The position numbers were made by a program, and so were the translations under genes. From Amphiscolops sp. MND2022 (Eukaryota), in contig OZ076409.1 in the NCBI GenBank assembly GCA_964187785.1, positions 68,326,001 to 68,390,000 of the forward strand: a DNA stretch of 64,000 nt. The letters run 5' to 3'. The stretch's first letter is position 1; every line of letters starts with the position of its first letter. The notes beneath the pieces were generated by a model. That model ran no database searches. It was not told the origin of the DNA and worked only from the letters and a program-made list of their open reading frames with translations. Shown piece after piece: positions 1,871 through 43,003 of this stretch.

Positions 1871-2984
1871 TAGCAGACAATTGGCGGCGCCACTTTACTG
1901 CCATATTGTCAATGAAGCTAACAGTAGTATTTACTCAGCGTAGGCGGTCCGAAGAAAAATTGAGATTTTCACCGAATTTATCAGCAGACCGATCTCCCAT
2001 GAAAAGGCATGACAACCAATAAAATGCAGATCAGCGGACATTCGGTGGGCCAAGAACTAGAGTTGCCGCGTCGAGAAATTTTAACCGAAATCACCCAGAA
2101 TGAAACCAGATATGACGATTGCCGAAAGTCCTCTTCTCAGAGAAGATTTACATAGGACAGAACAAACGAAGGACATGCCAGTTCAGAACTAACGAAGGAC
2201 ATTTTCTCCCCAACCGAACGAAGGAAACAGTCGAAGCCAACGCCGAGACAACCATCTTCTGCACATTTGGCCCCTGCACTCTCAATCCAAATCCTACCCC
2301 GGGGAGTGTCATGCCAGCATGATGGAAATATAATCTACTAAACATCTGTAATGTAAATAATATGTCTTATGTACTTAGATATGGGCAATATGATGTCATA
2401 TAATAAGAGCCATGGTTGTGAGCAACCCTACGTTACTTGTACTTAATCCCCATTTCTCCCATGAGTTTGAGTTATATACATTTACTTAATACTGAGCGCT
2501 CTAGTTCCGGTGTCCGCATAAATGATCTTGCCAAAAATGGCCTTGAATGTGCTATATTTCATAAATATAGGTTTGTCACGACAAGGGAGAGAAGTTTTCC
2601 GGTCAGACTGGACCAAGAGATATTGAAAGTAATGAGATGTATAGCTTCTACTAGCTCCCCGCCTCAGGACTTGTAGTCGTGACAACACTTTCATAAAGTT
2701 CATCGTTAGTCCATCAGCGGATTCAACGATGAACCCAATTTGTTTTGAATGAAGTTCATCGCAATTTCATCTCCGAAATTGCGGGTGAACAACGATTGGG
2801 ACTTTAAACTGATTTTCATCACTTATCTATCAGCGGATTTTATGGGACTTTATTTTAGTTACTTCATCTTAATTTCATCGGTGTATTTCATTTAGTAACT
2901 TCCAGTGTGCTTCTCATTTCTTGAGGACAGTAAACGCATCCCTTATTCATCTACTGACTAGTAAACAGAAAGAAAGAATGAGAA

Positions 2985-3485
2985 AGTACATCCCTAATTC
3001 ATCCAAAAAGAGTGAAGGTGCTGATTTATCTGATTTGTTTGGTAAATTCATCCTTAATCCATCCCGATTTTTATCTGAACTGGAATTTGCCGTTTTAGTG
3101 GACGAGTTCATCCCAAACTCGTCGCTAATTTGATTTGCCTTAGAATTTGTTGCTCTATTAGCTGAGTTCATCCTAAACTCATCGCTAATTTGACTCGCAC
3201 TGAAAACTGCTGTTTTATCTAATGAGTTCATCCTAAACTCATCTCTGATTTTCCTTTGCGCTAGATCTAGCAGTTTATCGAATGAATCCATCCTAAACTC
3301 ATCGTCAATCTAGTTTGTACTGGAAATTGGTAATTTATGGAGGAAGTTCATCCCTTTACCATCGCCATTTAAAATAGTGTTGATTTTTGGGCGAGAAAGA
3401 CTACATTTCATCGCGTATCTATCCTCAATTTCAGAATATCGATTTTAATGCTAGAATCAACTGGAAAACATCGTTTTCCTATCTC
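2985..3485 (+). repeat. 60-bp tandem array (~9 units) with core TTCATCCTAAACTCATC
   Basis: The core falls at the same column of consecutive 60-nt lines from 2941 to 3421; looser copies at 2698-2880, 3870, 4015-4105 and 436. Confidence 0.85.
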
Positions 3486-4149
3486 GCAATGCATTTTACC
3501 TTAATTTGACTTGAAATCAGTGTGCTATTGAATACTTTGAATTCATTTTCGTTGCTAGAGAGACCATTGTGGCATGTGCAGGTAAATATGACACTGTAAA
3601 GTGATGATTAACTACCATTTACACATATGTAGATTGATCATGATGCTTGGCCACCCTGCGGCAGTTCACAACACCGGTCACGTGACTTACCAATTAGCAC
3701 CAACCGGCAGTAGCCAATGAGAAGAGGCTGGTAAGAGATTTAGCGCCTTACCAGCCTGAAAAGACACGTGAACTGCTGTAGTTTAAGCCGCCATTAGAGA
3801 TTACTGAGACCGAATTACGATAAGTTACCGTATAGTTTGATATTTCACGCCAGAAGTTTACTTGAAAAGTACATCCTTAATTCATCTCTGAAACCATAAC
3901 ACGACTACCTGAGTAATTTCGAATGAAAAATCTACATTACGATGAGAACCGGATGAACTTTTCTACCTACCTCTGCTAAATTCCTTCTGATCACTTGATA
4001 CTTGTTTATTTGTACAACTCATCTCTAATTCATCTCAGTTCAAGATTAATGAATTCGAGATCGCATAATCAGATATGAAACAGCAAAATACATCCAAATA
4101 ACATCTCAGAAAATCTAGTCTTCACTCACAAGTCTTTTCACTTATCTAC

Positions 4150-4457
4150 ATGAATCAGGACCAAGGAACTGTACTCAGAAGCGGTAGAGTCATTGATTCC
4201 TCATCAGAAATAGAATCTCCTGCAGATCCAAACATGGCCCAGGCAAACTCGAATGATTCTGACACCAACGACAGTTCAGATATCTCTTCCCAGTTATCTG
4301 AAATAAAAGAGTTATGAACGCCGAATTAACGAGTTGCATCAAGAGTTTAGTCAACTGAAGTACTTAATGATGGCGATTGTAAGCAAGAACAGTAGCGAAT
4401 CTCAGCCATCTAGCTCGAAAGGTCCTTCAAAGCCGGCCCAACAGCATGGGTTCGACA
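4150..4457 (+). pseudogene. Gag-like N-terminal leader encoded in the LTR of element A (one frameshift)
   Basis: MNQDQGTVLRSGRVIDSSSEIES...SSQLSEIKE/fs/YERRINELHQEFSQLKYLMMAIV...QQHGFD: S/D-rich plus coiled coil, open to the LTR's last base, like the Gag leader of the complete element. Confidence 0.5.
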
Positions 4458-5695: not shown

Positions 5696-7004
5696 TGTCA
5701 CAACCTCACTCTTGCGCTGGTGCCATTGGGCAATTCTTAAGTAATCTCGAACTCCCAAACCCGATTTCCAGAAGTTCATGAATTTTAGATGGTCAACAAG
5801 GACTACCAACTATTCCCCCAACTTATACTTTAGTCATGTAACTTCATTTTTGTTAACCTACTTTTATACTGAGTTCAGCTTTACCTTGTTATACATCTGA
5901 AGTATTATAAGCGTAAATTTCATTCATCATTACAAACTAAAATGACTCATAATACTTTTTCACGCAGTTTGTGAGAGCTAATTTTATGCTGATATGTGGA
6001 ATTTGAATGAATTATACGTCACTATGCGGATCGAGGTGTGACAACTATACGTCACTATGCGAATCAAGGTGTGGTGACTATGCGTCACTATGCGGTTCGA
6101 GGACTGACGAGTATACGTCACTATACGTTTCTTCCGCCAAAGTACTACTATGCGGTACTATGCAGTTCGAGATATGACGAATATACGCTATTATACGTTT
6201 TTTTAGCTGAATCAGCTATAATTTGGATGTTTAAGCTCATATGCTGCTAATTAACATGTGAAATACCTTTGTGCACTAATCCTTTTCATTTTCTAGGATT
6301 CTTTTGTCTCTATAATTGTGATTTGAGTGTCATGCAAAATGGAATTGTGTGATATAAATAGAATGATGACATCCTGATGTAACTCTATTTATATCTTTTT
6401 AAACGATGATACCTGTGAAAAGTAGTGTCATACTTTTAATTTTGACACCATCAGTGCAGTTCTAAAACCAATCATTCAAAAGTAACTTCAATTGAAAGCA
6501 GTAACTCTCAAAAGAAACTTCCCATCTGCCATGTAAATCAATTTTCATCAATTTTGCTTACCAATTGAACTTTGCTCCATCAAAAGAATGCAAAGAAGTT
6601 CAACTATTTATTTGCAACAAAACCTTGTTTTCACTTGAATGAGATGGGAAACAGAAGAAATAGGAGGTCTCAAAGACTCGATAACCCCACACCCGAGAGA
6701 AAACCAGCAATATTGAAGTAGAAACTCCAAATCAAGATATGAAACGAACGGAAGGCAAAATGAACAACTTTCGGTATCCGAAAAAGTACAGTCTATAGGT
6801 GTTCACTCATCAAATAACGAAAACTCAGATTCAGGATTCAGAAGAAGATGATCATCCCCTAAGAGCCTCTAATATGAGTGAATTAAGAAATCCTGCTAAA
6901 CAGTTTCACTAAAATGAGCTAGACCTAGACGAAACAAGTGTCTCCGAGGAGGTCCTTTGAGGAGTGTCCTTCAAATGACGTCTCTGAGGAGGAGGATTAT
7001 CACA
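5696..7004 (+). mobile_element. Solo LTR of a sister family of the 8003-24636 element
   Basis: Starts TGTCACAACC (cf. TGTCGCAGCC) and ends with the same GAGGATTATCACA; flanked by TTAAG/TTAGG (4/5 TSD match); holds a decayed MGNRRNRRSQRL leader at 6644 and the same 33-bp motif array. Confidence 0.85.
6012..6198 (+). repeat. 33-bp tandem array with core TATRCG-TCAC-TATGCG
   Basis: Cores at 6013, 6046, 6079 and 6112 (exact 33-bp spacing), then two decayed copies. Confidence 0.9.
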
Positions 7005-8002
7005 TTAGGCGACATTATTAAAACATCCCTTCAGACATGCTTGAATGCGGAACAAATTTGAATATGCGTACCTGATCTATCTCTTTTTGTTAATTTTGAA
7101 AGCCAAAGAAGAGCAGAAAAATAGAATTATCAACCTCAACAAAGCAATGTTGACGATCAATGTCTACAAAATTTGACAAATTTCGATTTTGTCGTAGTGG
7201 AAGAGAAAATCAAGACATTTTGCAAGATACACCGAAGAAAAAATACCAGATGAACCAAATTTAAACATATCTACTAATCAATTGAAGCGAATTCCAAACG
7301 ATGGAAGTTTTCACCAGAGCAAATTGAGAAAATGGGAGAAACCTTACATGAAGTGTGCAACAAGTAGCGTGCTAAAGAAGAATGAAAACTTAAACTCGCA
7401 TGGCAAAACCTTCGAACCAAATTTTATTCGTTAAATCCTTGCAAACTCCAAATAAAAGCTCTACTGGCTAAGATGTATTCCTATTAGAGCCAATCGAGAA
7501 ATGCTCCGTGTATGCAGCATTCAACAAAATAGTTAACTGTAGGATTCTTTGATAGTTTGAAAAAAGAAAACGATTGCTACCCGGAAAATGACACTCAGAT
7601 AGGCAATTGTCTCCAGTTAGTACTCTACGTTAATGGTGTTATGAAAAATACTTAAAGAAAATAATAATTGAAAGCTACTAGCACCGATCAAAGTAGTGGA
7701 AGAAACCCTCATCCGGTAGTATCGCAATTTGGTAAAATGTTGATTAAGAATTTGACCACAAAGCGATTTTTGGCCAACAGGGAAAAGGATCCAGAGACCC
7801 GGTAATACAAGTTCATATCAAAATGAAAATTCTTCCGCCAAAACGACAATGGATAGATTACAGCACCACAAAGACCTCGACACTGAAAATGTACAAATCT
7901 AGATCTACTACGAATCAACTGTCGGCCTAACAATCGATCTATGGCTTCGAAACTAATACCACTACGCCCGAAAGCAGGGCGATCAAACAGAAGGAAAGAG
8001 AA

Positions 8003-9677
8003 TGTCGCAGCCCCAGAGATGCGATGGATCCGGAGTGCATCAATGAAAGATAAACAACGACCCAAACAAACACTCCAAATACTGATACATTTGTTTTTTC
8101 TTTTACTTCACTCTAATCAAGTCATGAAGATTCTAGATATATAACTTTGTAATTGAGTCATTTCGAGACTTTTGAGTTAGTAAAATAACGTCATTAATGC
8201 AGGAAGGCGCTAAAATACGTGATTCATTACAAATGTTAGAGTGAAACCTTCTTTCCTATGAATTTCGTTCACATTATGCGTCATAGTGCTGTAATTGGTA
8301 TGATGTACAAGCGTTAAAAGTCGCTTTTGAAGTAGTATGTATGCGTCATTATACGTAAATCTGAATCATGCATATTCGGCATTGTGCGTTTTTGACTATA
8401 CGTTGATACACATTATTAGATAAACTGAAGGTGCGGCATTGGACGCTTTCATGATGAAATCATACGTCGTTAAGCAGCTTTTGCGATGCCGTATATACGT
8501 CATTACGCAATTTTCACAACGCATGTGCAAATGGTTACATTATGTGTATTATGAAGTATATGCGTTATTGTTCATTAATGAATATTGATGTATATGCATT
8601 ATATGCGCTATCATGCGGTAAGTGGTGTACCGCATATACGTCACTAGACGTTTTTAGCTATATTCTTGCCATTTTGCACTTATGCATCATTTGACTCATT
8701 TAATAATACTTGAAACGCTTTAGACAGCATCTAGCATTACTTTCCTAGGGTTTTACGGTCCCTTGATAATATTTAGGGTGTCATGGCAGCATAACTTGAA
8801 GGATATAATTAGAATGATGTGAATGTGACGTTATGCTATTTTTAGTTCTTTAAACAATGATATCAGTAAAAACGATCGTCATCTTTTCTATATTTTTGGA
8901 AAGGCAGATCTGAAGGGACCTTTTTCATTCGTGATTTCATTCACCCACCAAGCAGTTGCTCACATTTCAACCTGACTTTTGTACAAGCAATTTTCTGGCT
9001 TACATCTTGTTTCATCACTCGAATTGTTTTGAATAATTCTCTCGAATAAATTCAAATTCTTCCCCAACAACTATAATACGATTTTCCTTTGAGAAGAATG
9101 GGAAACAAAAGGAGTAGAAGGTCCAGGAGATTGGCTACCCCATCTCCAGAAAGGGGCCCCAATGAAACTCTAGTAGAAACATCAACCCAAGGTAATATTA
9201 CTTTAACTAATACAGATCCTAACACCCAGGAAAACTTGGATGATGTTGGAATCAGGAGTCAATTGATCGAACCTAGTCAGTTAAGTAATGAAATCCAATC
9301 GTGGACTGAGAATTTTGAGCAAAAGAACAATGATAGGATTGCAAAAATGAGAGAAGAGATGGAGAATAAGTTAGACGCAATTCTGAAAGAAATAAAGTCC
9401 AACAAAAGTGTGTCTACGGTAACAAACCCGAGATCTGAAGAGAATACTATACAAAACATGCAACCTTCGGGATCCAAAACAATCGGGTCTATTGGAGTAC
9501 ACGCATCTTATAACAATAATTCAGACTCAGAAAATGAAGATTATCCTCTTCGGGCTTCTAAAATGAGAGATCTCAAACATCCTGCAAAACCTATATTTCG
9601 AAGTGAGTCCGACGTAGACGTAACAATCCATTCCGACGAAGAGTCTGATGAAGAAAGCCTAGATGAGGATTATCACA
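8003..9677 (+). repeat. 5' LTR (1675 bp)
   Basis: Direct repeat of 22962-24636; about 11 substitutions and no indels found by eye. Confidence 0.97.
8270..8660 (+). repeat. Degenerate TATRCG-N4-TATRCG motif array in the LTR (also at ~23230-23620)
   Basis: e.g. TATGCGTCATTATACG at 8340, TATACGTCATTACGCA at ~8495, TATACGTCACTAGACG at 8635. Confidence 0.75.
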
Positions 9678-10834
9678 TGGTGACAGGAGCTAACAAACAT
9701 CTCCATAGACAAAGTTCACAAAATTCTCAACCTTTGAATGATACCATTGGATCCCGCGCAGGCCGCCCAACATCAACACTCACGGAAACACCCTCTGACC
9801 CAGTAAATCAAATTGCCCAGGCAATGGAGAAACTAGCAAACAAAAACACACCGCAATCACTTTTCCACCCGAAAAATACATTGACATTCAACGGAAAAAA
9901 TGAGAAAAATGAAAAATTCGAATACTTCGAAGATTTGTTCCATACAACACTCCGAATGCAGCCAAACCTAACCGAAGACATGAAAATTAATCACTTCCAC
10001 GCCCACCTTAGAGGTTTGGCCTTAAAAATTTTCAAAAACATACAAAGAACCCCGACTACAACCCTCGAAGATATTTTGAAAGTCTTTCGTAGAAAATATG
10101 TAAAACCAGAATCTAGTGCCTCAGCTAAGCACCGATTCAATAGACTTTTTTTCGACCCCGAAAACCAAAAATTACCAGACTTCCTTGAAGAACTCCAAGA
10201 GAGTGCCGAAAAAGCGTTCGGAGACAACACACAACAGATGATAGAGAATTTACTCTAGGCAAAGATGCCCCCACACCTCAAAAAATCCATCAATCAAGCC
10301 TATCTTGAGAACGGCACATATGACCAGATTGTAAAACATCTCGAGAGGGAGATGGAACTAAACGGTCTGGAAGCAGATGAACCATCGGTCAAAACCCAAA
10401 TGACCGTAACTAAAAAAGAACAAAAAGTGGAAAAATCGACCAAAAAGCAAAGTGAAAACTCTAAAACACAAACTCCAAAAACAGTGCCTAACAAGACAAT
10501 CAAAAATGACCAGTGCCGCTACTGCAAGGAGGCGGGCCATATGATGGCTAACTGCCCCAAGCTAGCAAAACGACGTAAACTTGAAGAGGACCCGGATGCA
10601 GAAAAATGTGAAAACTGCAATACACCAGGTCATGAAGAAGAAAACTGCTACTTCGGTGCCAATATGGAAAACCGACCACCGAAGTGGAATCTCACAGAAG
10701 CTCAAAAGAAAGTCATCGAAGCTTACAAACAAGCTAGAAAACCCATAAAACCAAAAATAGAACGACCTCAACAATCCTCTTCCAAGGATTTAAACTCGAA
10801 ACGCCACGCCTTACCAACCAAAACGCCCAAATAA
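9098..10834 (+). CDS. gag: Gag (starts inside the LTR; one in-frame TAG at 10256-10258; two CCHC zinc knuckles)
   Basis: ORFs 9089-10258 and 10265-10834 share a frame (ENLL*AKMPP); capsid-like region LTFNGKNEK...FRRKY; knuckles CRYCKEAGHMMANC and CENCNTPGHEEENC. Confidence 0.9.
9678..9690 (+). promoter_or_regulatory. Primer-binding site TGGTGACAGGAGC (tRNA-Leu-like, tentative)
   Basis: TGG immediately follows the CA of the 5' LTR; resembles the Leu-type PBS TGGTGTCAGGAG. Confidence 0.8.
10786..10795 (+). promoter_or_regulatory. -1 ribosomal frameshift site GGA-T TTA AAC
   Basis: Heptamer T TTA AAC (10789-10795) is in the Gag frame; the -1 frame is open from here (FKLETPRLTN...) into pol. 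Confidence 0.85.
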
Positions 10835-13800
10835 CACCTCAAAAACCACAAGACGACTGGCAGCGTCAAGTGGAAACCATAAATATCCAACTTAAACAAC
10901 TGACTACAGAACCAGACTACACACATCAAACATCTACACACTCAGACAGTAATCAACTTCCACAAGAATCCTACTATGACCTCATGAGAGATGCCCCTGA
11001 CAAGTATCTCTCAGACAACATCCAAACCTCTCCTACACTTACAGAAAATTCACCAGAAATGTACCACCCGAGCACTTTCTCTTGCAATGAACAAAAACAA
11101 CCCCTTTTAGACGAAGATATCACAAACCACATCCAGTTTGACAAGGAACGCAACCTGTCATACTTACCTATGTCAACCTCCCTAACATTGAAACGAAAAC
11201 GCCACATGTACTACATGCCAATGGACTTCGAAAAACTTACACTTGATGGACTCATTGACACAGGAGCCCTGACTAGTGCAATCTCTGAACAAGACCTAAA
11301 CAAAATCAAATTAATTGCCAATGAAGCAATAAACGATACTGGTCCACCACCAAATTTTCAAATTATGGTAGCCAATGGTCAACTAGAAGTACCAATCGGC
11401 ACAGTACTACTTGAATTCGAAGTGGCTGATTTCATGTTACGAGAAAATTTCATCATCATGAAAAACCTACCAAACCCACTCATTGGCCTCTGTTTTCTTC
11501 GCAGAAACAATGCAGTTTTTGATGTCACACAAGGCATTTTAACTTTTCCATACCTCTCAATGCAACTAAAACCAGACACGCAAGTAACAATGCGTCAGAC
11601 AACGCCATTATTTACTGAAAATACATACACCCTTCAACCAGGCGAAACTCTCGCCATAGCAAGCAGAATGCCCCACCTGTTGGACCACGACGCAACAGGA
11701 ATAGTCACACCTTCACCACAATTTGAAAATCATGACAGCATTTTCATCACATCGTCACTTAGTACGGTCAACAATAATGCTATCGGGTACCAAATCATCA
11801 ACTTTTCAGAACTTCCATATACAATAATCTGTGACACCCACTTAGCAGACTTCAAAATCCTCACACCAGAACAAATAAAACATATACAACCAGTAGATCC
11901 AGCGATGTTGTCATTCATGATACAACACGAAGAAACAACCGAGATCTACATAAATGAACTACTGAAAGTTCCTTCACAAAACCCCGAACAAGAATCCTAT
12001 TGGTTCCCGACACCAGAAGAACCAGGGGATCCTACAACGTACACCCCAATCCAACAACGAATTTACAATGAACTCCTTGAGCTCAAAGAACTTGAACAAC
12101 TCAACCCACAAGACAATGAAAAATCAAGAAAAGCTTTCCTTACGAATTTTGACTGGACAGACACAACGCTCAACCCAGAAGAACAAAAACAAATCGAAGA
12201 AATCCTCATCGAATTTCACGATATTTTTGCCAGACATCGATTCGACATCGGCACCAATCGTGAATTCAAAGTCAAACTCACACCAAACGACGATCGACCA
12301 GCATAGAGCCAAAGTTTACCAACACCAATCAACCTCAAAGATGATATCACGGTAGAACTAGCACTTCTACACAAATATGGCATTATAACAACCTTACCCT
12401 TTTCAAAATACGCCAGTCCAATTTTTGCACAACGCAAACCAAATGGACGCCTCAGACTACTTGTAGACCTCAGGAAAATCAACAATTTAATCACTGAAGA
12501 TTACATCAATAATAATCACCCGGTAAGCACATTGTCGGATGCAGCACAACATATGGCAGGCAAGAAACGTTTCTGCAAATTAGATTGCTCCCAAGCCTAC
12601 CACTGCCTCCAAATGGCAGACTACCAATCTATTCAGATGCTTGCTTTCAATTTCGCAAGCCGAACCTTTGCTTATCGGCGACTCGCCCAAGGACTTAGCA
12701 GATCTCTCTCGGCCTTTTCAAGCTTCATGAGGGAGTACCTTGATAAGGCGATCAAGGCCGACCAATGTGCCCAGTACGTCGATGACATTGGTATAGCAGC
12801 AAACGACTCAAAACAGTTATGCGCCAACATCAGGACGGTCTTCGAATGCATCCGAAATGCTGGTCTGAAACTCACAATGTCCAAATGCCATTTCGGAGTT
12901 AAGCAAGTTGACTTTCTAGGCCGCACAATCATACCTGAAGGCGTCGCTCCTCAAGCTGACAAAGTCAAAGACTTCTTGTCAAAACTGAGATTTCCCAAAT
13001 CCAAAAAAGCACTCCAAAGGTATATCGGATTCTTAAATTATTACCGCAATTACATACCGAGACTTTCTGAACGGTTATCCCCGTTCTTCAAACTTCTTAA
13101 AGAAACCTCGAAATTCTACGTACCCACGAATTTGGTAGAAGACTTCACCAACCTGAACAAACTACTCGAAAACTCTTGCCAATTAGCATTGAGACAACCT
13201 CTCAAAGACAAACAACTCATAGTCATGTCTGATGCAAGCTTTACAGCAGCTGGATATGCTATCATGATAGAAGACGACCCCAACCAAAAACTCCAGTCCA
13301 AACGCAAAACCTATGCACCTATAGCATTTGGCTCGAAAACCTTTAACCCAACACAAACAAAACTGTCAATCTATGCGAAAGAATTCCTTTCCATATACTT
13401 TGCTTTTGTTGAATTTGGACACCTCATGTGGGGAAGCACCTTTCCAGTCATAGTATTCACCGACAACAGATCTGTTACTCGCTTTTTCCAAGCAAAACTT
13501 ATTCCTCCAGCACTATGGAACGCATGCGATTACGTCCTGCAATATAATTTTGTAATTGCCCATGTTGCTTTTTCAATGAATACTGCGGCAGATTTCCTAT
13601 CCAGAACGGAAGTCAACCCAGTCGAAAAACTCGAAATGAGCTTAAGAAATGATATCCAAACGAAAGCAATAGAAGTCAATATACAATCATCGGGTACAGT
13701 GGAAGAAGAACAAATCTACATCCTCCCTGATGACGAAGTTGATGAAAACCAACTTTGGAAAGAAAAGCAAAACGTGAGAAACCAAGCTCAAAATGAAACT

Positions 13801-15669
13801 CACAATGACCCAGAAAACAATGTTACTGAACTTCAACAATTCCACAAACCGACATCAGGCCTAAACACTTGCTCGGTAGGACATTTCCGAGACAACGCCA
13901 GAATCCGACTCGAACAAAACAACGACATTGTACTTCGGAACCTCAGAGCCAAAATAGAAGGCAACACTTTTGATGAAAACGACTTAGCATCTGACTACAG
14001 ATACCAGCATTACCTCCAAAATATAACCAGAATCGAAATTAAGCAAGAAGTTCTAACGAGGAAATACTACACAGACACTGGAACCACCTCGCATTATCAG
14101 ATTTTGCTACCAACACAACTCCTAGAAGGACTACTCCAAGCCTTACATGGACACAACTCGAACCATCCGGGTATCACAAAGATGATACAAGAAGTGAGAC
14201 AAAAATACTACTACCCTTGCATCGCAAAATACATTAAAAAATGGGTAAGTAATTGTCAAACCTGCATACAAACCAAAAGGATCAATAACGACCTCCTCAG
14301 GACCGAACTACTCAATTGCCCGGAATATGACCTCGGCCCTGAAGACATCCTTCAAATGGACATTCTTCCAAACCTACCACCCAGCGGTGGATATGACCAT
14401 ATAATCACAGCGATCGATGTTTTCTCTCGATACCTGTTTGCATATCCAGTGACACGCATCACTGCAACATCAGTAGCCAGAGTCATAATGGACATATTAT
14501 GCAAACATACATACCTTCCGACAACAATCATCACAGATCTTGGCACACAATTCAACGCTCAAGTAACCCATGAAGTTACAGCTGTCCTAGGCGTTGAACT
14601 AAAACATGCAACAATGAAACACGCTCAAACAATAGGACTTCTGGAAAGAACACATGCTTCAGTCAAAACCCAACTCAAAGCAGCAACTGGAGAATTTCGG
14701 CATAACTGGCATAAATTTCTCCCGTTAGCTGTACTAAACCACAATACAACTTATCATGCGTCGCTTGGTTGCGAGCCTTCACGTGTCTTCCATGGCCGCA
14801 TACCACACAACATACTGGACTATAAATTAGGATACAATCCTAATCCGAAATATCAACTCCAAACCGACGTTGCAGAAGAAATACAACGACGAATGAAAAT
14901 ACTTCTAGATCGGACCAAAAAGAACATAATGCAATCTTATCTCAAGTACAAAGCCTATTATGATAGCAAAGCAAAAGCATCACCGTTAGAAACAACGGAC
15001 TACTGCTACATTTTAAACCCGAAAGCTGACACACAAGGAACAAAAATACCGTTCCGGGAATTCAGATGGCAGGGTCCGTACAAAGTCGAAAAAGTCCTTC
15101 CTAATAATAACTACATTGTTAGGAGACTAGGTACAAACAAAACACAACTCTTACATAGAATCCGGTTGAGAAAATTCACGCCGCAAACACCTTTAGCCGA
15201 TATCTTTGTACGAGAATCTGATTGGCAGAAAGATGATCAAATGCCAGTGGCACACGACGACTTATATGCCCAATCATGGAACACAAATTTTGGGCCTAAC
15301 CCTTTTGAGGAAAGCCCTCCAGATTATACGCATAATACTGATGACATTGAATATGTACCCGTTGAAGTACCTGAAAATAACCCCCCTCCCTCCCCCAAAA
15401 TTCCGAAAAACAGCGGGGGGAGCCCAGTGGAACAGCCCACTGAACGCGAAGAAGAAAACCATAATGAAATCCAGCAAGAAATTCAAGATGGTGATACAGA
15501 AATCTCCCAAAAAACCCCAAAAGATAATACACCAGAACGACAAACTCAAAAAACCCCAGAAAACCCACAACATACCCCATTGCAAGAAGAACCCATAAAT
15601 ACGCGTAGTGAAAAATACAACTTACGTCCTAATCCCAACCCAAACTACTCAGATTCTTACAGATACTAA
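10789..15669 (+). CDS. pol: Pol: aspartic protease, dUTPase-like spacer, RT, RNase H, integrase with GPY/F motif; one in-frame TAG at 12304-12306
   Basis: LIDTGA; KPNGRLRLLVDLRKIN; YVDD; SDAS...KE...FTDN; H-H-C-C zinc motif; D,D,E core (MDIL, TDLG, LERT); WQGPYKV. The frame continues across RPA*SQSL. Confidence 0.95.
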
Positions 15670-15846
15670 AAAACTACAACCCAGAAACTATCTTCATTCT
15701 CATTTTTTCCTTCTAGTGCAGACTTTCATATGCATCCACACACCAAGTCACCTGTAATCAGGTGTAGCTATTATAAACGATAAAAACAGAACAAAATGTA
15801 ATACAAACAAAACGAAGTAAGTTTACAAGAATCACAGAAAGTTCAT

Positions 15847-18800
15847 TTAATTCTTCTTGCCTTTAGGCACTTTCTCTTTTGGTCCTTTCGTGGCAGAAGC
15901 AACTACCTCACAACGAGGTACTGCCAAAGTAGCTTTCCCCAAGAAAGACCTGGGTGAAAGAGATCCAGTACTACTGGTTGATCCACTTCTGCGATCAGGG
16001 TCACTCTCAGTAGGTAAACACAAAGTTTCTGGCCTTGCAACAGCTACCCGATACGAGGACTCAAGTCTGTTCAATAAATTCTGCCTTCGGGTTGCCCCTC
16101 CTTTCAGAAAATTCCAAATCGAGAATTTCTTGTCACGAGTTAAATCATGACCCCTCCCCAGCAGTCGGAATACTCGGCTGACAGAACGAGTGTCTCGATA
16201 TAAACTAGACACATTTGGTACTGAACTATAGGACATCTGTAGGCTGTGGACACAAGATTGAAAGGTCCCCTTATCAGATTCGAGCTCAGGGATCGGAACC
16301 ACAAAAGGTTCTGGGGAACTAAACAGAGGGGGTAAACTGAGACTCGCATACCGAAAGAGTTGATGCAATTCACGACGGTTTTGCAGCTCGTAATGACTGG
16401 CCAAGAAATGAAACCAATCAGCAGTATCAACAACGCGCATGGACCGCAACTTGGTAACGAAAGCCCGGTACTGGCTCACAGCATTGGCTTTGTCACTGAC
16501 GGTTATCCACCCTTTCACAAGGAAATGACTCGAAAGGTATTCTATAGCCGAAGTGTAATGCTCTTCAGTTCCGTCCAAAATAACAGCCGAATCAAAACTG
16601 GCTAATCCGCGCACTAAGTCTGATTTGATGATGTCATGAGATAACAGAATTCCACAAAAGGATTTGCAAAAGGCGATCGTTTGCTCAATAAACTTGCTCG
16701 GTCTAGGCCGTTTGCTACTCACCACAAGACGGTGGTAGTCAGCATTTAAGACGAATTCATCGGGCGTTTTGAACGGTAGATCAGCTCGACTCAAATCAAG
16801 TTTAAGGAAATGGTCCCAATCAGAAATATCCCCAAGAACACTATCTGGAAGGATATTCTGCAACTGACTGTACACAAATACGGCGAATTGATTGTACAAT
16901 CTGAACCCCGAACCAAACTGGGATGTAACTTCAGAGAAGGCGGAATTGTCTGAAACATAGCCAAATTACTACTAAAAGATCGAAAATGCACCAAAGGAAC
17001 GTGATTACAACGATGAAAACAGAAAAGTACACGTGTTCTACGCTATTATGCGATTTTTCATATTCATGCTACGGCGTTATACGGCTTTGGAATACTGATC
17101 ACACGGCATCATGCGGAATTCAGAATGTAGACCACTCGTTATCATACGTTTTCTGACCATGCGGCATTATACTGAAATTATATTGGCGGTTATGCGTCAT
17201 CATACTGAATTCAAATTCCAACCATGCGGCATTATGCTTAAATCATATTGGCGATTATGCGTCATTATACTGAATTCAAGTTCTAGCCATACAATAGTAT
17301 ACTGAATTCATATTAGCGATCATACATTGTTATAATGATTTCAAGTTTTCACCACGCTGTGCTATACTGAGAATATAGTAGCAATTAGTCATCACTATGC
17401 TGACTTTGGAATACAATGGCGTCATGATACTGAAATTAATGTACCGCATATTCGTCACAGCGCATATGTTGGATATCAATTATACGTCATTATGCGGATT
17501 TGGGAATGACGAGTAATCGCTATTCCTCGGAAAAGAAGAAACCCCTGTAGGTGAAAATTGAAAGAAACTAAAGTCAGGAAAACAACACGTGCTTCTTGAA
17601 ATAACAATGTTGACTGCAAAAGACGCCGAGATACAACAGAAAATGAAATCCTAAGGTTGTATCCGAAGGTGCGGAAGAATTAACTAACTAAAAACCTAAT
17701 GAAAGAATTATGGAAAACACCAACACTGATCCAAGATACAGCGGATGATGAACAATCTCGCGAGGTAGGCTGTGTCGAGCCGAAAGCACTCGTCTAGTGT
17801 ACTAGGCTGTAACAGAGATAAAACTAAATTAGGGCGGTCCGCGAGAGCAACTCTGAAACTTCGAAAAATACCAACTTCTCTCATATGAAATCTGTATGTA
17901 GGCAGTCGGGACATGCGGTTTAGATGCTCCAATACCATATCCCAGTGGCTAGATAGAGTTTCAATCACAATAGAAGCCTCGGACAGAGTATATGTGAGAT
18001 CAAGAACACACTAAAGCGCAAAACTGCTGTGGAATTAGAGACCTAGGAATGAACTATAAAATGTGCTAGGTAAAAATACTACCTTATGAAGTACAGGAAG
18101 TGCCTGAAGCCATTCACGATCCAACGCCGTGCGCAGTTTCATATGAAGGTAGTCTAAGATGGTCCGAAAATCATGTCTTTCCAAGATTTTAGAAGTGGGT
18201 AAAGAAAGACATCTCTCAAGCTCCTTGGGTCCAAAACTGTTGGTGGCGTAAGGACGTAAATTTCCAGGCAAAGCAGAAATGAGACTGCTGTCTAATCGGC
18301 CAGGACATCCAATTAAACAAATGCAAGATGGCGCAGTCTCAAATAAACTAAGGAACGAGGATATAACTGTCAAGAGGCGCTTAGGCACTAGTAACCCTCG
18401 AGGACCAGATCCAAGGCAAACCTGATGGTATACGTTGCCTGACCAGAAATTGATGTACACATCAGTTGAAGTGTGTACAGTGAAAGGACAAAGAAAACAC
18501 TCCGGAGGAAGAGATGGCCGTCACACTGTAATTGAGCAGTTCCCGGAACATGTAGACTAGTATTGCCTGTAAAAGAAATAAACATTACATGATGGAATAA
18601 TGGAAAACTTTATCAGATTACCCTGCTGGGGTAAAGAAATACTCACAAAGATCCGATGTTTACTCCAAATGTAGGGTGAACTTTCCTCGCATGCGGGCGA
18701 GAGTTGGACCAGCTCATTCCAAATGCCGATGAGGCTATCCACGTGCCCACCATAGCGTAAGCCTTGCTCAAGGATACTGATTTGTGCAAGGACGTCTGCG

Positions 18801-20414
18801 CTAGGGCTAGTTGACGAACTCAAATCGGGCAGTTTGTCCTGTCGCACCAACAAACGGCAAATGTCCAATTGGGGCGTAATCGGGTGGGTCTCCTTAGCGA
18901 TCCGTTTAGCTTCTTGCAGGGGAAGCCCAGCCAATTCATTCTCATACCGATCAAATAGTGGCATTCCCGGGATCTCCAAACGGATCCTGTGTTCCTTGAT
19001 AAAGTGGCTCTCCGTTCGGTAGTGGGAGAGTAATTCGAGCACTCCTCTACTCATTAGAGAGAGTTCAACCCGGCACACGCGGCACCACCACTTGTAAGGA
19101 TTCTTGTGCCGGTCAAGAGGGCCGGTGGCAAAAAACTTCAATACAGGATGTTTTCTCATCATACTGGATTTCAAAACGTATCTGGGGCGTTGTCTCTTCC
19201 CTTTCGTAGCGGGAATGTCCTCGCAACTTGAATACAATCCAGTTTCATCCACCAGTAGGGGAGCATTACTAGTGCTCGGAACGTTTTGTAAACGTCTGAC
19301 GGGTGAATGGGGAGGGTTTTCTATTACACTAATCTGTATTCCGTCGGTGTTTCCTTCGGGATTCTCAGCAAAGGCAGATTGCGGGATTCTCCCTAACACA
19401 TTAGTTAGTGCCAAAATTTCCTGTCTGGTGACTACGATGCTTTGTCTAGTGGTGGCAGAACTTTTATTAGTCAATATGTCAGCCGGCCGGCTATCATGTG
19501 TCGTGTCCATTTCCTCCTCAGCTTCAGCATGTTCATTTGTTGGGGGTGGGTGCAAATTTTCTGGGTTCATCGGGGTATCTTTTCCTGTCAAAAAAGACGT
19601 AAATCTCGGGGAAGTAGTTTGAGCAGTCCCGGTGAAGTTGGGTTCTTCCTCTGTTATGGGATTGGATGTGCCGGATAGATCTTTTACCATCATTGTTGAC
19701 AAATCTGGCAATGGAGAGTTATTTCCTTGGCTGACAACACGCGATGCAAAAGTCCCAGTTGCTCCAACAACTTGTACGCTTTCATCATCTCCATCCCCAG
19801 TTTCCGAATCATCGATGAAAAGTAATGACGGGGAAATTGATGTGTCTAGTTCAAGAGCAGTCTCCTGGACAATACCGTCTTTATTCAAAGAAGGGTCTTT
19901 AGTGACAAATTTGTCGGGAGTAAGGATGTGGCGAGTTGGAGTTGAGATGATGCTAAGGGGAGTGTAAACTTTAGCTGGAGACTTCTCAACTGCCTCGGCG
20001 GCAGACTCAGGGTGAGCTGAAACAAACCAAGATTTCTGTTGATGGACAAAAGTGAACGAAATGTGTTGTTTTCCGTGAGAAAGGCAATCTGAAACCGGAA
20101 GTAAGTTCCAGAAGTCTTAATTGAACGGAAATGACTCGATTTCAAACCGGAAGTGGATACGCTTCTAAAAGTTCGAGACTAAAATTGTGATCGAAGACAA
20201 GTAGATCAATCTTCTTGGTAGCCTGGCCAGCTATCCAATTTGAAACCCTACCTGATCAGGAAAAAAAATCTGAAGAAAACCGAATAGTCCAAATCAGAAA
20301 ACGAAACTAAAACTCACCAGAAGTGCTCGCTGCGGGAATTTGGGAACTCATTTCAATGAGCTGTTGCTGTGGGGCTGATTGTTGTTCGTTTGTCTGTTTG
20401 TTGGGGGAGTCCAT
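15847..20414 (-). CDS. Spliced antisense accessory gene (~1110 aa): low-complexity N-terminus, BED-type zinc finger and degenerate hAT-transposase-like body; one +1 frameshift near 18470
   Basis: Exons 20414-20318, 20016-18647, 18566-18083, 18010-17725 and 16949-15847, joined by GT-AG introns in matching phases (1,0,0,1). Zinc finger WWCRVC-x16-H-x5-H near 19000-19095. The fourth donor (GTTGGT) is the least certain. Confidence 0.75.
17040..17500 (+). repeat. ~33-bp motif array inside the last intron of the antisense gene
   Basis: Alternating CATGCGGCATTATACT / TATGCGTCATCATACT units; perfect core TATACGTCATTATGCG at 17481. Confidence 0.85.
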
Positions 20415-20869
20415 ATCTCGGAAACTTGAATTCCAAGTAACTAGGACGCTGGAGCAGGAAAGAAGGTAACCACGGATGAGAATAAACAAGTATGATGATC
20501 AGTACTATGCTCTAGTCGGAATTAAAATGAGAAATGAAACGATAATCTACAAATGAACTGACTATAAATATGAATTACCGATGTTAAATTTGAAAACGCG
20601 AATTCAAAAGACTTGGAAATAGCTGAAAATTTCAACAAAAGGCGTGGCGTACACAAAACAAGGCAAAAAGCAAATGAAATATGCAATAGGAAAGTACCAA
20701 AAAGTGTACTTTAATCTGATTGGTCAATTAAATTGTCAATCATTTCTGCCAGAATGGTTGATTACGTAATTCACGTCATCTTGGACAGTGAATAAACAAC
20801 AAACATTGAATAGGCTGCTTTGCATTCACATTATTATGGCCAGCAGCAAGATTCTGGACTGCCGGTATA

Positions 20870-21260
20870 CTTATACGGCAGTATGCGGAGCTACTATGAA
20901 CGCATATACAGCACTATGCGAAGAAAGAAATATACGTGTACGGCGGTATGCGGAATAAATATGAGCGCATACACAGCAGTATGCGGAAAAAGAAATATAC
21001 TTATACGGCAACACGCGGAGTTATTATAAACGCGTATACAGCAGTATGCGGAAAGAGAAGTACAATTATACGGCAGTATGCGGTATTATCAAGAAAATAC
21101 AGAATACAATGTACAAAGTTCCAGACGGGGTTATGCTGCGCTACATGGATCTACTACGAATGTATACACAACAACGTGCGGATTCACAAAACAACAATGT
21201 GCTATAGCGCGAAACTACCACGGATACAGGCAACATACATATTGAACTATAAAGGAGTCC
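20870..21260 (+). repeat. ~33-bp motif array between the antisense gene start and the sense accessory ORF
   Basis: TATACGGCAGTATGCGG at 20872 and ~21067, with variants every ~32-34 bp. Confidence 0.85.
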
Positions 21261-21949
21261 GGAGAATAAGCTGAAGTATTACGGGATGTGATGCATGACA
21301 TTGCTACTACACACAGAAATGTTAAAGAAAGCAGTCAGAAGGGCCAGAATTTTGTTGGGCCTCTTTAAGACAGTAAACAAACCCTTAAGTAATTGCTGAT
21401 TACATTGCGCTTATAGAATAAAACTTATAAAAAAAGACATGAAAACTGACATTTGTTTCAATATGCTTGCATGGAATTTGATTTCAAATATTTTCTGCCG
21501 GAAAACTAGATTGTTAGTCATGTAAGATTGGATATATTTCCTTTATTTTTGCTCATTCTCATAATGGGAAGAAGAAATCATGTAACCCTTTGATGATGAT
21601 TATCATTTTGTTTGAAAGCTATTAAATCGGCTGAGGTGCCGCCAAAAGAGAGAAGAAAAGCAGGCATCCATCCTAAGAAACACCTAAACTAAATTTGTTT
21701 ACATCGAGTTAAGAGGAATCTCGGTGAGCTACATGAACTGAAATCCTAGAATCGAGAAGGAAACCAAATAAGGAAGTTGTGAAACCCTAAGAATCATGAC
21801 ACTCACATTTTCCGCGGGTTTTTGTTGAAGAAAGAAAGGGATTGGGAAAAATATCACCACACGGTCTATAATAACTTGAGATTCAGTTGCTCCTAACTTC
21901 AAAACCTAGTCCTCTACTGATCAAGAATTCATAAGTACATCTTTAAAGA

Positions 21950-23005
21950 ATGAATCCAGCACATTTTAACATCACTGAAAATTTGAGTTACTCACCCATT
22001 TCTCCTGAAGTGGTTAATATATCAAGCGAATCTGGCGAGGAGTTCATCGTAGAACCTGGCAACATCGCACAGATCGATGAAAGGTTCAGGATCAACACGA
22101 TGGGTTCCAATATGATGTCCGCTTTCGTGGGCTCAGCAGCGGCTGTTTTGTTCCCTCAGCCGAACCCGATCAATCGACAAGAGACTGTTGACACTGCAGG
22201 TTCCAGCATTGAAAGAGAAATCATGGAGCTAATTGAAGAAACCCCACTCTCACCTTCTGCTTCTCCTTTGTCCTTCATAGACTCGGAATTTGAAGAAGTG
22301 AATATGTCGCCAAGAGATTCTCCTGTAGTGTCTGAAGAACGAGTAAATAACTATGGGCGACCCGTTGCAGCTATTTTACCCACACCAAGGATAGTAAGAC
22401 AAAGATCAGATGAAGTGGTCAGGCCAATACCAACGTACCCTCCGAACTTCTTACAGGAATCATCCCATTTTCATCAAGTTAACTCGGTCGATACCAATAA
22501 TCAAGGAGCTGTAATTCCCCCGTTGTCTGAGGCAGGAATTACGCACTTACAGACCGTGCCGGCTCCTACAGAACCGCAATACCCAATAATGGGAGACATC
22601 ACACCAATGGTGATACACTTGCCTCCTAGATCCATGGTAGATGTCTCCGCCAACTTTATTGGATCATCTCAACAATTTACCCAATTTGGCTTTCCATTCA
22701 GCATTCTACATAGCTCCGACGTTCCAGTGATGGCGCCCAGTGAGAGACAAACCTTCCGGTTGTTTCCTACAGTTATGCCTAATGTCTCAGGATATTGCCA
22801 ATGGTGCGGCCGTACCTTCGATCAAGTTGCTTTGGAAACCTTGGGAGACTATCTCGGAGCAACAGCTTATGACGGGGAGACGGTCAGGGATCGTGGAGTG
22901 AGGTCAAGAGCTTTTATCGATGGTTTTGAAGCTGCGTTATTTATCTTTAAAAACGCGGGACTGTCGCAGCCCCAGAGATGCGATGGATCCGGAGTGCATC
23001 AATGA
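21950..23005 (+). CDS. Sense accessory ORF (351 aa), S/P-rich with a C-terminal CQWC-containing domain; not env-like
   Basis: Intact ATG-TGA ORF with no signal peptide or TM stretch visible; crosses the PPT and ends 44 nt inside the 3' LTR. Confidence 0.75.
   Translation: MNPAHFNITENLSYSPISPEVVNISSESGEEFIVEPGNIAQIDERFRINTMGSNMMSAFVGSAAAVLFPQPNPINRQETVDTAGSSIEREIMELIEETPLSPSASPLSFIDSEFEEVNMSPRDSPVVSEERVNNYGRPVAAILPTPRIVRQRSDEVVRPIPTYPPNFLQESSHFHQVNSVDTNNQGAVIPPLSEAGITHLQTVPAPTEPQYPIMGDITPMVIHLPPRSMVDVSANFIGSSQQFTQFGFPFSILHSSDVPVMAPSERQTFRLFPTVMPNVSGYCQWCGRTFDQVALETLGDYLGATAYDGETVRDRGVRSRAFIDGFEAALFIFKNAGLSQPQRCDGSGVHQ
22949..22960 (+). promoter_or_regulatory. Polypurine-tract-like sequence AAAAACGCGGGA
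   Basis: One base upstream of the 3' LTR TG. Confidence 0.65.
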
Positions 23006-24636
23006 AAGATAAACAACGACCCAAACAAACACTCCAAATACTGATACATTTGTTTTTTCTTTTACTTCACTCTAATCAAGTCATGAAGATTCTAGATATA
23101 TAACTTTGTAATTGAGTCATTTCGAGACTTTTGAGTTAGTAAAATAACGTCATTAATGCAGGAAGGCGCTAAAATACGTGATTCATTACAAATGTTAGAG
23201 TGAAACCTTCTTTCCTATGAATTTCGTTCACATTATGCGTCATAGTGCTGTAATTGGTATGATGTACAAGCGTTAGAAGTCGCTTTTGAAGTAGTATGTA
23301 TGCGTCATTATACGTAAATCTGAATCATGCATATTCGGCATTGTGCGTTTTTGACTATACGTTGATACACATTATTAGATAAACTGCAGGTGCGGCATTA
23401 GACGCTTTCATGATGAAAACATACGTCGTTAAGCAGCTTTTGCGATGCCGTATATACGTCATTACGCAATTTTCACAACGCATGTGCAAATGGTTACATT
23501 ATGTGTATTATGAAGTATATGCGTTATTGTTCATTAATGAATATTGATGTATATGCATTATATGCGCTATCATGCGGTAAGTGGTGTACCGCATATACGT
23601 CACTAGACGTTTTTAGCTATATTCTTGCCATTTTGCACTTATGCATCATTTGACTCATTTAATAATACTTGAAACGCTTTAGACAGCATCTAGCATTACT
23701 TTCCTAGGGTTTTACGGTCCCTTGATAATATTTAGGGTGTCATGGCAGCATAACTTGAAGGATATAATTAGAATGATGTGAATGTGACGTTATGCTATTT
23801 TTAGTTCTTTAAACAATGATATCAGTGAAAACGATCGTCATCTTTTCTATATTTTTGGAAAGGCAGATCTGAAGGGACCTTTTTCATTCGTGATTTTATT
23901 CACCCACCAAGCAGTTGCTCACATTTCAACCTGACTTTTGTACAAGCAATTTTCTGGCTTACATCTTGTTTCATCACTCGAATTGTTTTGAATAATTCTC
24001 TCGAATAAATTCAAATTCTTCCCCAACAACCATAATACGATTTTCCTTTGAGAAGAATGGGAAACAAAAGGAGTAGAAGGTCCAGGAGTTTGGCTACCCC
24101 ATCTCCAGAAAGGGGCCCCAATGAAACTCTAGTAGAAACATCAACCCAAGGTAATATTACTTTAACTAATACAGATCCTAACACCCAGGAAAACTTGGAT
24201 GATGTTGGAATCAGGAGTCAATTGATCGAACCTAGTCAGTTAAGTAATGAAATCCAATCGTGGACTGAGAATTTTGAGCAAAAGAACAATGATAGGATTG
24301 CAAAAATGAGAGAAGAGATGGAGAATAAGTTAGACGCAATTCTGAAAGAAATAAAGTCCAACAAAAGTGTGTCTACGGTAACAAACCCGAGATCTGAAGA
24401 GAATACTATACAAAACATGCAACCTTCGGGATCCAAAACAATCGGTTCTATTGGAGTACACGCATCTTATAACAATAATTCAGACTCAGAAAATGAAGAT
24501 TATCCTCTTCGGGCTTCTAAAATGAGAGATCTCAAACATCCTGCAAAACCTATATTTCGAAGTGAGTCCGAAGTAGACGTAACAATCCATTCCGACGAAG
24601 AGTCTGATGCAGAAAGCCTAGATGAGGATTATCACA
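22962..24636 (+). repeat. 3' LTR (1675 bp)
   Basis: Direct repeat of 8003-9677, followed by TSD GAGAA. Confidence 0.97.
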
Positions 24637-27600: not shown

Positions 27601-27649
27601 TTCCGTTTTTTGTCTTTTTCGGTGTCAATTGGAGATTTTTCTCATTAAG

Positions 27650-42803: not shown

Positions 42804-43003
42804 NNNNNNNNNNNNNNNNNNNNNNNNNNNNNNNNNNNNNNNNNNNNNNNNNNNNNNNNNNNNNNNNNNNNNNNNNNNNNNNNNNNNNNNNNNNNNNNNN
42901 NNNNNNNNNNNNNNNNNNNNNNNNNNNNNNNNNNNNNNNNNNNNNNNNNNNNNNNNNNNNNNNNNNNNNNNNNNNNNNNNNNNNNNNNNNNNNNNNNNNN
43001 NNN
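42804..43003. other. Assembly gap (200 N)
   Basis: Run of N. Confidence 1.

Follow-up and report, generated by a model that had tools for sequence, protein, structure and literature searches.

Antisense accessory genes and tandem arrays have been known in LTR retrotransposons for decades, but, in the accounts cited here, their origin and function have not (PMC7264820, PMC11963269). The locus analyzed in this work raises this question for an element that carries both features, and an earlier note on this DNA had proposed that its paired-motif arrays are target sites of the element's own zinc-finger protein, i.e., that the protein and the arrays constitute a self-recognition system.

The retrotransposon and its neighbors

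The element is a 16.6-kb Ty3/gypsy LTR retrotransposon at 8003-24636 of the window, that is, of the whole 64-kb stretch of DNA analyzed (Table 1). It has paired LTRs that differ by 11 mismatches, a 5-bp target-site duplication (GAGAA) that precedes the 5' LTR and follows the 3' LTR, gag, and a pol gene with the PR-RT-RNaseH-IN order. The Pfam matches follow in the order RVT_1, RT_RNaseH, Integrase_H2C2 and rve; those for gag and protease are weak. The PBS-like sequence has no tRNA match, the purine tract of the element is weak, and no family was found for the sense accessory frame. A search for related DNA loci in contigs of metagenomes, viruses and prokaryotic genomes found none, the sole locus returned (L001) being a false match over a bacterial-type gene, and a DNA pattern of two motif units had no matches in viral contigs. 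Upstream of the element lie a solo-type LTR remnant of a sister family, the 5' end of which was not found, and the LTR-like end of a neighboring element.

Table 1. Features of the window, in order of position
Feature	Positions	Strand	Remarks
LTR-like end of neighboring element	2307..4457	+	boundaries drawn from one copy
Sister-family solo-type LTR remnant	6006..7004	+	60-65% identical to the element's LTR; decayed gag start
Motif array, six units	6013..6197	+	in sister-family LTR remnant; ends 156 bp before TATA box at 6353
5' LTR	8003..9677	+	TG...CA, 1675 bp; start of gag inside its 3' part
Motif array, 5' LTR	8275..8650	+	ends 154 bp before TATA-like box at 8804
gag	9098..10834	+	capsid-like region, zinc knuckle; in-frame stop 10256 (window copy)
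PBS-like TGG... sequence	9678..9690	+	abuts 5' LTR
pol	10738..15669	+	PR-RT-RNaseH-IN; in-frame stop 12304 (window copy)
Predicted exon 5	15847..16949	-	all-helical; weak alignment to Hermes 367-609
Motif array, 33/65-bp period	17037..17496	+	between predicted exons 4 and 5
Predicted exon 4	17708..18010	-	100-aa frame between exons 3 and 5; likely start of hAT insertion domain
Predicted exon 3	18083..18566	-	predicted RNase H-like core, catalytic Asp not conserved; frameshift near 18470 in window copy
Predicted exon 2	18647..20016	-	disordered N-terminus, basic stretch, BED-type CCHH finger (~19004-19090), then helical region
Predicted exon 1	20318..20414	-	ATG, phase-1 GTGAGT donor; from sequence only, phase-compatible with exon 2
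Motif array, 33/65-bp period	20872..21137	+	between divergent starts of antisense gene and sense frame
Sense accessory frame	21947..23005	+	352 aa, Pro/Ser-rich, one CxxC; ends within 3' LTR
3' LTR	22962..24636	+	TG...CA
Motif array, 3' LTR	23234..23609	+	same as 5' LTR array; pattern and matrix matches

Phased arrays of a paired motif

The paired motif TATRCGNNNNTATRCG (TATRCG-N4-TATRCG, at most one mismatch) has 20 matches in the window, compared with a mean of 0.17 and a maximum of 1 in shuffled sequences. All 20 are on the plus strand; six fall within the solo-type LTR (6013-6197) and 14 within the element, the latter all in non-coding parts, whereas the remaining 39.7 kb, the neighboring element, the satellite described below and gag-pol contain none. 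Thus, the arrays that the earlier note had reported in the solo LTR, in both LTRs and in the 17-kb and 21-kb regions are indeed present, in one orientation and outside gag-pol. A matrix scan of the window yields 60 motif matches vs. 6.9 in shuffles, and looser leave-one-array-out matrices give 1-5 scattered matches in gag-pol that form no array. The lags between half-sites peak at 33 (21 pairs), 10 (18 pairs) and 65 bp (18 pairs), in agreement with the reported units of ~33 bp with hexamers 10 bp apart; in gag-pol, no lag exceeds two pairs. The higher-order 65-bp units reflect recent duplication. Within the 64-kb window, the arrays are dense, confined to the element and the sister LTR, and located in non-coding regions.

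Some details of the initial description had to be adjusted. The array reported at 20870-21260 exists but ends near 21137. The motif had been called CpG-containing, and a CG is found inside a hexamer in 34 of the 40 array units, i.e., frequently but not invariantly, the core common to all four distinct arrays being YATRC.

Across arrays, with unit registers set by hand and partly from the matrix, identity is 0.62 in the cores and 0.32 in the spacers, against 0.26 by chance, so that, across these arrays, cores persist while spacers diverge, as had been claimed. When a matrix built from three arrays is run on the fourth, it recovers 6, 7, 11 and 9 forward sites, 100-155-fold over background, and the cores of the 20872-21137 array match those of the solo-type LTR array at 0.85. 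The difference is weaker in the element's own LTR array, the most eroded one (within-array identity 0.39 in cores vs. 0.31 in spacers). The LTR arrays lie ~270 bp from the U3 end in both LTRs of the element, and the distance from the last array unit to the TATA box is 154 and 156 bp, respectively, in the element's LTR and the sister LTR, which are ~60% alike.

The neighboring element has a paired motif of its own, YTCATC-N5-YTCATC, with a 60-bp period. It contains 17 matches to the YTCATC pair (0.22 expected) and none to the TATRCG pair, compared with one and 14, respectively, in the main element; between the two elements, the presence of one motif nearly excludes the other. With its own motif in the same layout, the neighboring element is a natural control. 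The 2.3 kb of its interior inside the window have no match to the antisense-type protein. A related paired motif, with six exact copies of YATRC-N5-YATRC, is found in an 84-bp satellite (45806-47512) that is unlinked to the element.

A predicted hAT-derived protein encoded in antisense

The antisense gene is predicted to be spliced and to encode a protein of ~1,100 aa, well beyond a lone zinc finger. Homologous protein clusters number 101 for exon 2 and 88 for exon 5, and the exons and junctions are kept in 88, 101 and 47 clusters. The motif at the end of exon 2 is present in 65 of the 101 homologues, and in 59 of these 65 the next residue is V, as if the GT donor were read through; the conservation of exon 5 begins at the predicted acceptor. 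The 17037-17496 array, which had been assigned to an intron of this gene, does lie between predicted exons 4 and 5 and probably is intronic, although no splice donor was found downstream of exon 4.

Conservation within the protein is highest in the finger (mean identity 0.79 vs. 0.54-0.56 elsewhere), each of the C/C/H/H residues being present in 58 of 59 aligned rows, and the BED region of exon 2 is unbroken in the window copy. Divergent fingers are also present among the homologues, one of which (P0379) passes the Pfam zf-BED cut-off (22.0 vs. 20.6 bits) while three more of the 25 tested match weakly. The window's own finger and its 58 close homologues score below this cut-off, with any match at all in one of these 59 (E 1.1). 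Homology across these sequences points to a BED-type finger, as had been suggested. Given that the finger is near-invariant over 59 aligned families and that the motif recurs in a sister LTR of ~60% identity, its description as family-specific is retained at the level of the clade and abandoned at that of the single family.

The AlphaFold model of exon 3 has the RNase H topology (mean pLDDT 55.6, ~80 for the first 50 residues). Foldseek places Hermes chains first and second (E 3.4e-3 and 6.9e-3, both above 0.001; prob 0.99), and VIA aligns model residues 1-103 with Hermes 158-264 (Z 6.0, rmsd 3.5, 98 aligned), with retroviral integrases (Z 7.3-7.7) scoring above Hermes (5.8-6.0). For the exon 5 model, the alignment with Hermes 367-609 ranks third of 48,161 (180 aligned, Z 4.9, rmsd 8.3), a score within the range of unrelated helical proteins; this alignment would make the domain order colinear with Hermes. 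The Atlas neighbors that have a family are DUF4371 / FAM200-ZBED5 RNase-like proteins (0.87-0.92). Foldseek found no match for exon 5, Pfam no hAT family for exons 3 and 5, and sequence-profile searches of the PDB nothing relevant, Hermes included. Taken singly, each fold score is weak. On these models, the antisense protein is predicted to follow the hAT layout, with a BED finger, then an RNase H-like core and, at the C-terminus, a Hermes-like part.

The catalytic columns in the exon 3 alignment were located by means of the span that the structural alignment covers and the Hermes numbering of catalytic residues, the third position being the least secure. The first Asp column contains Q in 27, E in 3 and D in 2 of 41 sequences, the second D in 14, G in 13 and N in 11 of 41, and no CxxH motif occurs in the homologue alignment. 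Accordingly placed, the catalytic residues are predicted not to be conserved, and the DDE triad and CxxH of an active hAT transposon would be lacking. Terminal inverted repeats were not detected either: among 141 inverted 11-mer pairs around the antisense gene, none is flanked by an 8-bp duplication at up to two mismatches. The literature searched yielded analogues but no ORF of hAT derivation within a gypsy element; the family may nonetheless be recorded in Repbase, in subscription journals or in supplements.

A possible self-recognition system and its alternatives

We hypothesize, with about even confidence for and against, that the element captured a hAT transposase that is now catalytically dead and that probably binds the arrays through its BED finger, so that the element's own promoters are switched on or kept open. 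Under this scenario, the retrotransposon would have domesticated the transposase and its catalytic residues would have been lost, leaving binding without cutting. The BED finger would recognize the paired-motif arrays in the non-coding parts of the element, and a hAT-type oligomer could offer several fingers to half-sites that, at distances of 10 and 33 bp, lie roughly on one face of the helix. Binding might then act on the promoters in the manner of Spm TnpA or VANC. The antisense orientation would allow an intron-containing gene to survive retrotransposition because its introns should not be spliced from the sense genomic RNA. The least certain part is the output, namely, activation or anti-silencing, not repression. 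By analogy, the BED domain of Hermes is described as a cooperative, in-phase binder of short subterminal repeats (PMC10368747), the TnpA and AtMu1 transposases as activating their own copies through dense motif clusters (10.64898/2026.08.24.746577), and VANC motifs as tandemly repeated within introns as well as in intergenic and terminal regions (PMC5735166).

The anti-methylation role that the earlier note had attached to the CpG finds no support. The observed/expected ratio is 0.78-0.83 for CpG and 0.76-0.92 for GpC in the element's genes, and none of the 11 LTR differences is a CpG transition. A VANC-like mechanism by demethylation is not favored, because there is no CpG-specific depletion; nor does the composition indicate that CpG is heavily methylated. 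The self-recognition idea itself is strengthened by the homology of the finger to the BED type, the hAT-like predicted gene, the conservation of the cores and the second LTR element with its own paired motif. A bolder extension, which we put forward tentatively, is a radiation of gypsy elements with a private self-recognition code, in which an ancestor domesticated a hAT transposase, inactivated its catalytic site and used it as its own transactivator, and each clade's BED finger has co-evolved with the clade's own phased paired-hexamer array (TATRCG 10 bp and YTCATC 11 bp apart).

Multimerized sites for host factors are common in the U3 of LTRs, and the arrays could be enhancer repeats for a host transcription factor, of the bZIP/CRE type or a host BED protein, with the hAT-derived protein playing another role. 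The CRE half-site CGTCA occurs in 13 of the 40 array units, and the related motif of the unlinked satellite is compatible with this explanation. However, CGTCA is found in none of the seven units of the 20872-21137 array, despite the close match of its cores to the solo array, which rules out a CRE/ATF-only reading of that array. Moreover, the motif is missing from the other 39.7 kb, the neighboring element has a different motif in the same layout, and it would be left unexplained why the accessory protein is most conserved in its BED finger. We consider a host factor unlikely to be the main reader.

Alternatively, the protein might bind the arrays but repress the element, as copy-number control, or, in the way that hAT oligomers organize transposon ends, arrange the ends of the cDNA for import into the nucleus or for integration. 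The presence of arrays near the U3 end of both LTRs is suggestive of such a role, as is the retention of the whole transposase body at ~55% identity across families, which exceeds the needs of a simple activator; for the antisense ORFs of plants, proposed functions include nuclear roles in retrotransposition, according to the cited text (PMC7264820). Nevertheless, two arrays are internal, one of them between divergent gene starts, and the distance from LTR array to TATA box is fixed, so transcription fits better than end handling, and we regard this alternative as rather improbable.

Finally, neutral tandem expansion with the gene as a relic of a nested hAT insertion and its leftover subterminal repeats appears very improbable: plant Retand elements are described as commonly having tandem arrays, of no known function, in the interval from pol to the 3' LTR (PMC11963269), the 65-bp units are recent duplications and the window copy has stops and a frameshift, but the arrays also occur within LTRs, spacers but not cores are near chance across arrays, the exons and junctions are retained in the homologous clusters, and a nested hAT insertion is rejected by the lack of any inverted pair with an 8-bp duplication.

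Comparison with known systems

If the proposed capture is correct, the route on which a transposase loses catalysis and becomes a transcription factor would extend to a case where the domesticator is a retrotransposon, not the host, and the product would be a transcription factor that derives from a DNA transposon and is borne by a retrotransposon. The accessory gene combines a traceable predicted origin in a hAT transposase with a DNA-binding domain of the type that reads short repeats, a candidate motif and an adjacent negative control, which makes the long-standing question accessible to direct test; some 100 natural families are available for the study of protein-DNA co-evolution.

The closest functional parallels are Spm/CACTA TnpA and the AtMu1 transposase, which, like this element (by prediction), involve a transposase-derived non-catalytic protein and dense clusters of short motifs confined to related families (10.64898/2026.08.24.746577). 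However, TnpA comes from a DNA transposon's own transposase and uses HTH domains, whereas the protein here has a BED finger and is predicted to be of Class II (hAT) origin, although its carrier is a Class I element; in the main text of that preprint, neither 'LTR' nor 'retrotransposon' occurs (10.64898/2026.08.24.746577). VANDAL elements share the tandem motifs in introns, intergenic and terminal non-coding regions, with none reported in exons, and their families, too, differ in motif (PMC5735166). VANC, a fast-evolving accessory protein of MULEs, is described as going back to a host protein related to MAIN (PMC13547354); in contrast, the finger of this element is near-invariant within the clade, and its composition shows no methylation footprint.

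The plant Retand, Grande and RIRE2 elements resemble this one in the long region that runs from pol to the 3' LTR, in the antisense ORFs with predicted DNA binding and in the family-specific tandem arrays, but TRP28 (PF04195) of Retand is given as plant-only and of unknown origin, and a motif common to LTR and internal arrays, as found here, is not described in these accounts (PMC11963269, PMC7264820). The proteins of the present element have no match to TRP28.

In the order of its predicted domains, with the BED finger first, the RNase H-like core next and the helical C-terminal region last, the antisense protein would agree with Hermes-type hAT transposases and with ZBED, FAM200 and DUF4371 proteins, and domesticated hAT-derived proteins are described as having kept DNA binding and lost catalysis (PMC10368747). 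The candidate sites differ, being direct repeats 10 bp apart here and an AAGT quasi-palindrome in Hermes (PMC10368747). The element also differs in lacking terminal inverted repeats around the gene and in the keeper of the hAT-derived protein, which is the host for ZBED, FAM200 and DUF4371 and would be a retrotransposon here.

Paired-motif arrays and the element that carries them

The paired motif TATRCG-N4-TATRCG, with at most one mismatch, has 20 matches in the 64-kb window, all on the + strand, against 0.17 expected, so the arrays described in the earlier note are real. Six matches lie in the sister LTR, a solo-type remnant to the left of the element, and 14 in the element itself, a 16.6-kb Ty3/gypsy retrotransposon with arrays in and beside it; another 39.7 kb of the window contain none. 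Distances between half-sites show peaks at 10, 33 and 65 bp, and no comparable peak was found in gag-pol, where the note had seen no arrays. Its claim that cores persist while spacers diverge also holds: across 40 units of four arrays, with unit registers set by hand, between-array identity is 0.62 for hexamers, 0.47 for the 4-bp middle and 0.32 for spacers (chance, 0.26). Erosion has gone furthest in the array of the element's own LTR (core 0.39, spacer 0.31). To check for selection bias, a matrix from three arrays was scanned on the held-out fourth, yielding 6, 7, 11 and 9 forward sites versus 0, 1, 0 and 0 reverse ones, at 100–155 times the outside density; these looser leave-one-out matrices also give 1–5 scattered gag-pol matches. 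In both LTR families, the final array unit ends 154–156 bp upstream of a TATA-like box.

The two element LTRs differ at 11 of 1675 positions, and a TGG-starting primer-site-like sequence directly follows the 5' LTR. The window copy, with in-frame stops at 10256 and 12304, is young but defective; its host is eukaryotic, probably an animal. Because gag starts inside the LTR, its frame includes the candidate primer-binding site. In the sister LTR (60–65% identity to the element LTR; right end at 7004, 5' end sought but not found) the layout is alike, with a gag start inside the LTR. Between pol and the 3' LTR, a 7.3-kb interval holds the antisense gene, a spliced gene on the - strand, and a sense frame for which a Pfam search returned no family. 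CCAAT-like and palindromic ATTACGTAAT / CACGTCA sites separate the start of the antisense gene from the 21-kb array; they suggest an internal promoter driven by a host factor.

Features of the element, the neighbouring element and the rest of the window
Feature	Position	Strand	Remarks
Neighbouring element, 3' part	1-4457		cut by left edge; LTR-like part 2307-4457, boundaries inferred; gag-like start seems within LTR too
YTCATC arrays	3043-3418; ~3870-4035		60-bp period (first array); internal copies 436, 1686, 1842
Element LTRs	8003-9677; 22962-24636		TG start, CA end, GAGAA on either flank
gag	start 9098		inside 5' LTR; first ~190 codons within LTR (9098-9677 and 24057-24636)
pol			PR-RT-RNaseH-IN
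Predicted exon 5, antisense gene	16949-15847	-	splice signals
Predicted exon 4	18010 to about 17711	-	splice signals
Predicted exon 3	18566-18083	-	splice signals; frameshift near 18470 in window copy
Predicted exon 2	20016-18647	-	splice signals
Predicted exon 1	20414-20318	-	splice signals
CCAAT-like and palindromic sites	20690-20790
Sense accessory frame	21947-23005	+	352 aa, Pro/Ser-rich, single CxxC near end, extends into 3' LTR
Degenerate repeat	26968-27652		~184-bp period
Tandem duplication	28454-38610		~5.2 kb, ~90% identity, plus partial copy; short 66-bp-period repeats at 31386, 36624
Assembly gap	42804-43003		200 N
Thymidine kinase ORF	44777-45514	-	intronless; Pfam TK E 1.6e-48; closest Atlas clusters mainly viral or bacterial, which does not establish origin
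84-bp satellite	45806-47512		directly upstream of thymidine kinase frame; unit with paired-motif look-alike (TATACA-N4-CATACT type), 6 exact YATRC-N5-YATRC
Hairpin	55476-55576		50-bp arms, near-perfect, 90% complementary

The neighbouring LTR element is a natural control. Its motif, YTCATC-N5-YTCATC (lags 11, 49 and 60 bp), has 17 matches there, internal copies among them, against 0.22 expected, one match in the element and none elsewhere in the window; conversely, TATRCG-N4-TATRCG has none in the neighbouring element. Given these separate motifs, the two adjacent LTR elements share a common layout written in different letters. The 84-bp satellite may derive from a related array.

The antisense gene and its probable hAT origin

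The five predicted exons encode ~1,100 aa in total. Exons 2, 3 and 5 have 101, 47 and 88 homologue clusters, all of them from ENA assemblies and some with more than 40 members, and a broader profile search found 382 representatives. Conservation ends where the junctions were predicted: V follows exon 3 in 39 of 39 rows and thereafter the top residue reaches at most about a third, and exon 5 homologues are conserved from the predicted acceptor onward. Contigs of equal size pair matches to exons 5 and 2 (12 times), 5 and 3 (8) and 2 and 3 (6), which suggests that the exons travel together. No good donor was found at the exon 4-5 junction and the exon 4 frame closes with a stop, so the gene is possibly split there.

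A hAT origin, suggested by motif patterns, was tested. ESM Atlas neighbours with an assigned family (DUF4371 / FAM200-ZBED5 RNase-like) offer a lead only. The predicted structure of exon 3 has the RNase H layout (three strands, helix, strand, helix); Foldseek places Hermes chains at ranks 1 and 2 (E 3.4e-3 and 6.9e-3, prob 0.99), and VIA aligns model positions 1-103 with Hermes 158-264 at Z 6.0, although it scores retroviral integrase cores above Hermes (Z up to 7.7). For exon 5, the model matches Hermes 367-609 at rank 3, with 180 residues aligned (Z 4.9, rmsd 8.3), a match that is weak alone but colinear. The zf-BED cut-off was passed by one of 25 tested homologues, with three weak matches besides; among close homologues, one of 59 matches (E 1.1). 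Taken together, the evidence makes a hAT origin very probable.

The catalytic positions, placed using Hermes numbering and motif patterns, are not conserved, so that catalysis is predicted to be lost. The first strand ends in S/A, L/Y/F, then Q (Q 27, E 3 and D 2 of 41), the fourth in D, G or N (14, 13 and 11 of 41), the likely third position is E in 2 of 54, and CxxH is absent from the homologue alignment. None of 141 candidate pairs forms an inverted repeat with an 8-bp duplication around the gene. The BED finger is the best-kept region (mean pairwise identity 0.79 versus 0.54–0.56 elsewhere), and more distant families have clearly distinct fingers.

Candidate self-recognition and known systems

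Binding of short subterminal repeats by the BED domains of Hermes is cooperative and demands precise phasing; hAT proteins that have been domesticated retain the ability to bind DNA but seldom the catalytic activity (PMC10368747). We propose that the antisense protein would be produced from the internal antisense promoter, that several of its fingers would bind the phased half-sites, and that it would act on the promoters in the LTR and the interior of every clade member, also in trans, an arrangement from which defective copies like that in the window would benefit. Binding of the arrays by this protein is likely. Recognition by a host factor, set beside the separate motifs of the adjacent elements, appears unlikely, and a neutral reading, given cores that persist between arrays, is very improbable. 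Activation or anti-silencing as the outcome has, overall, about an even chance. We do not favour demethylation as the route: element genes have a CpG o/e of 0.78–0.83 (GpC 0.76–0.92) and the host flank 0.98, and CpG transitions account for 0 of 11 LTR differences. Within this one 64-kb window, the earlier proposal of self-recognition by the element's own finger protein is supported in part and extended.

Our literature search, which covered sources other than Repbase, most subscription journals and supplements, found no gypsy element reported to carry an ORF of hAT origin. In the passages covered, a giant-element review mentions no LTR element that has captured a transposase (PMC6431247); exchange of the plant mobile domain between gypsy elements and MULEs is known (PMC5418596). 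In build, the element resembles plant Retand elements, which combine an antisense ORF with arrays (PMC11963269, PMC7264820), but it lacks the TRP28 domain and is thus no member. Transposases and the transposase-derived TnpA activate their own copies via dense motif clusters (10.64898/2026.08.24.746577), and VANC acts on motifs arranged in tandem within non-coding DNA (PMC5735166). Unlike those systems, the element is not a DNA transposon, nor is it an active hAT; in its working, if confirmed, it would be akin to TnpA and VANC.
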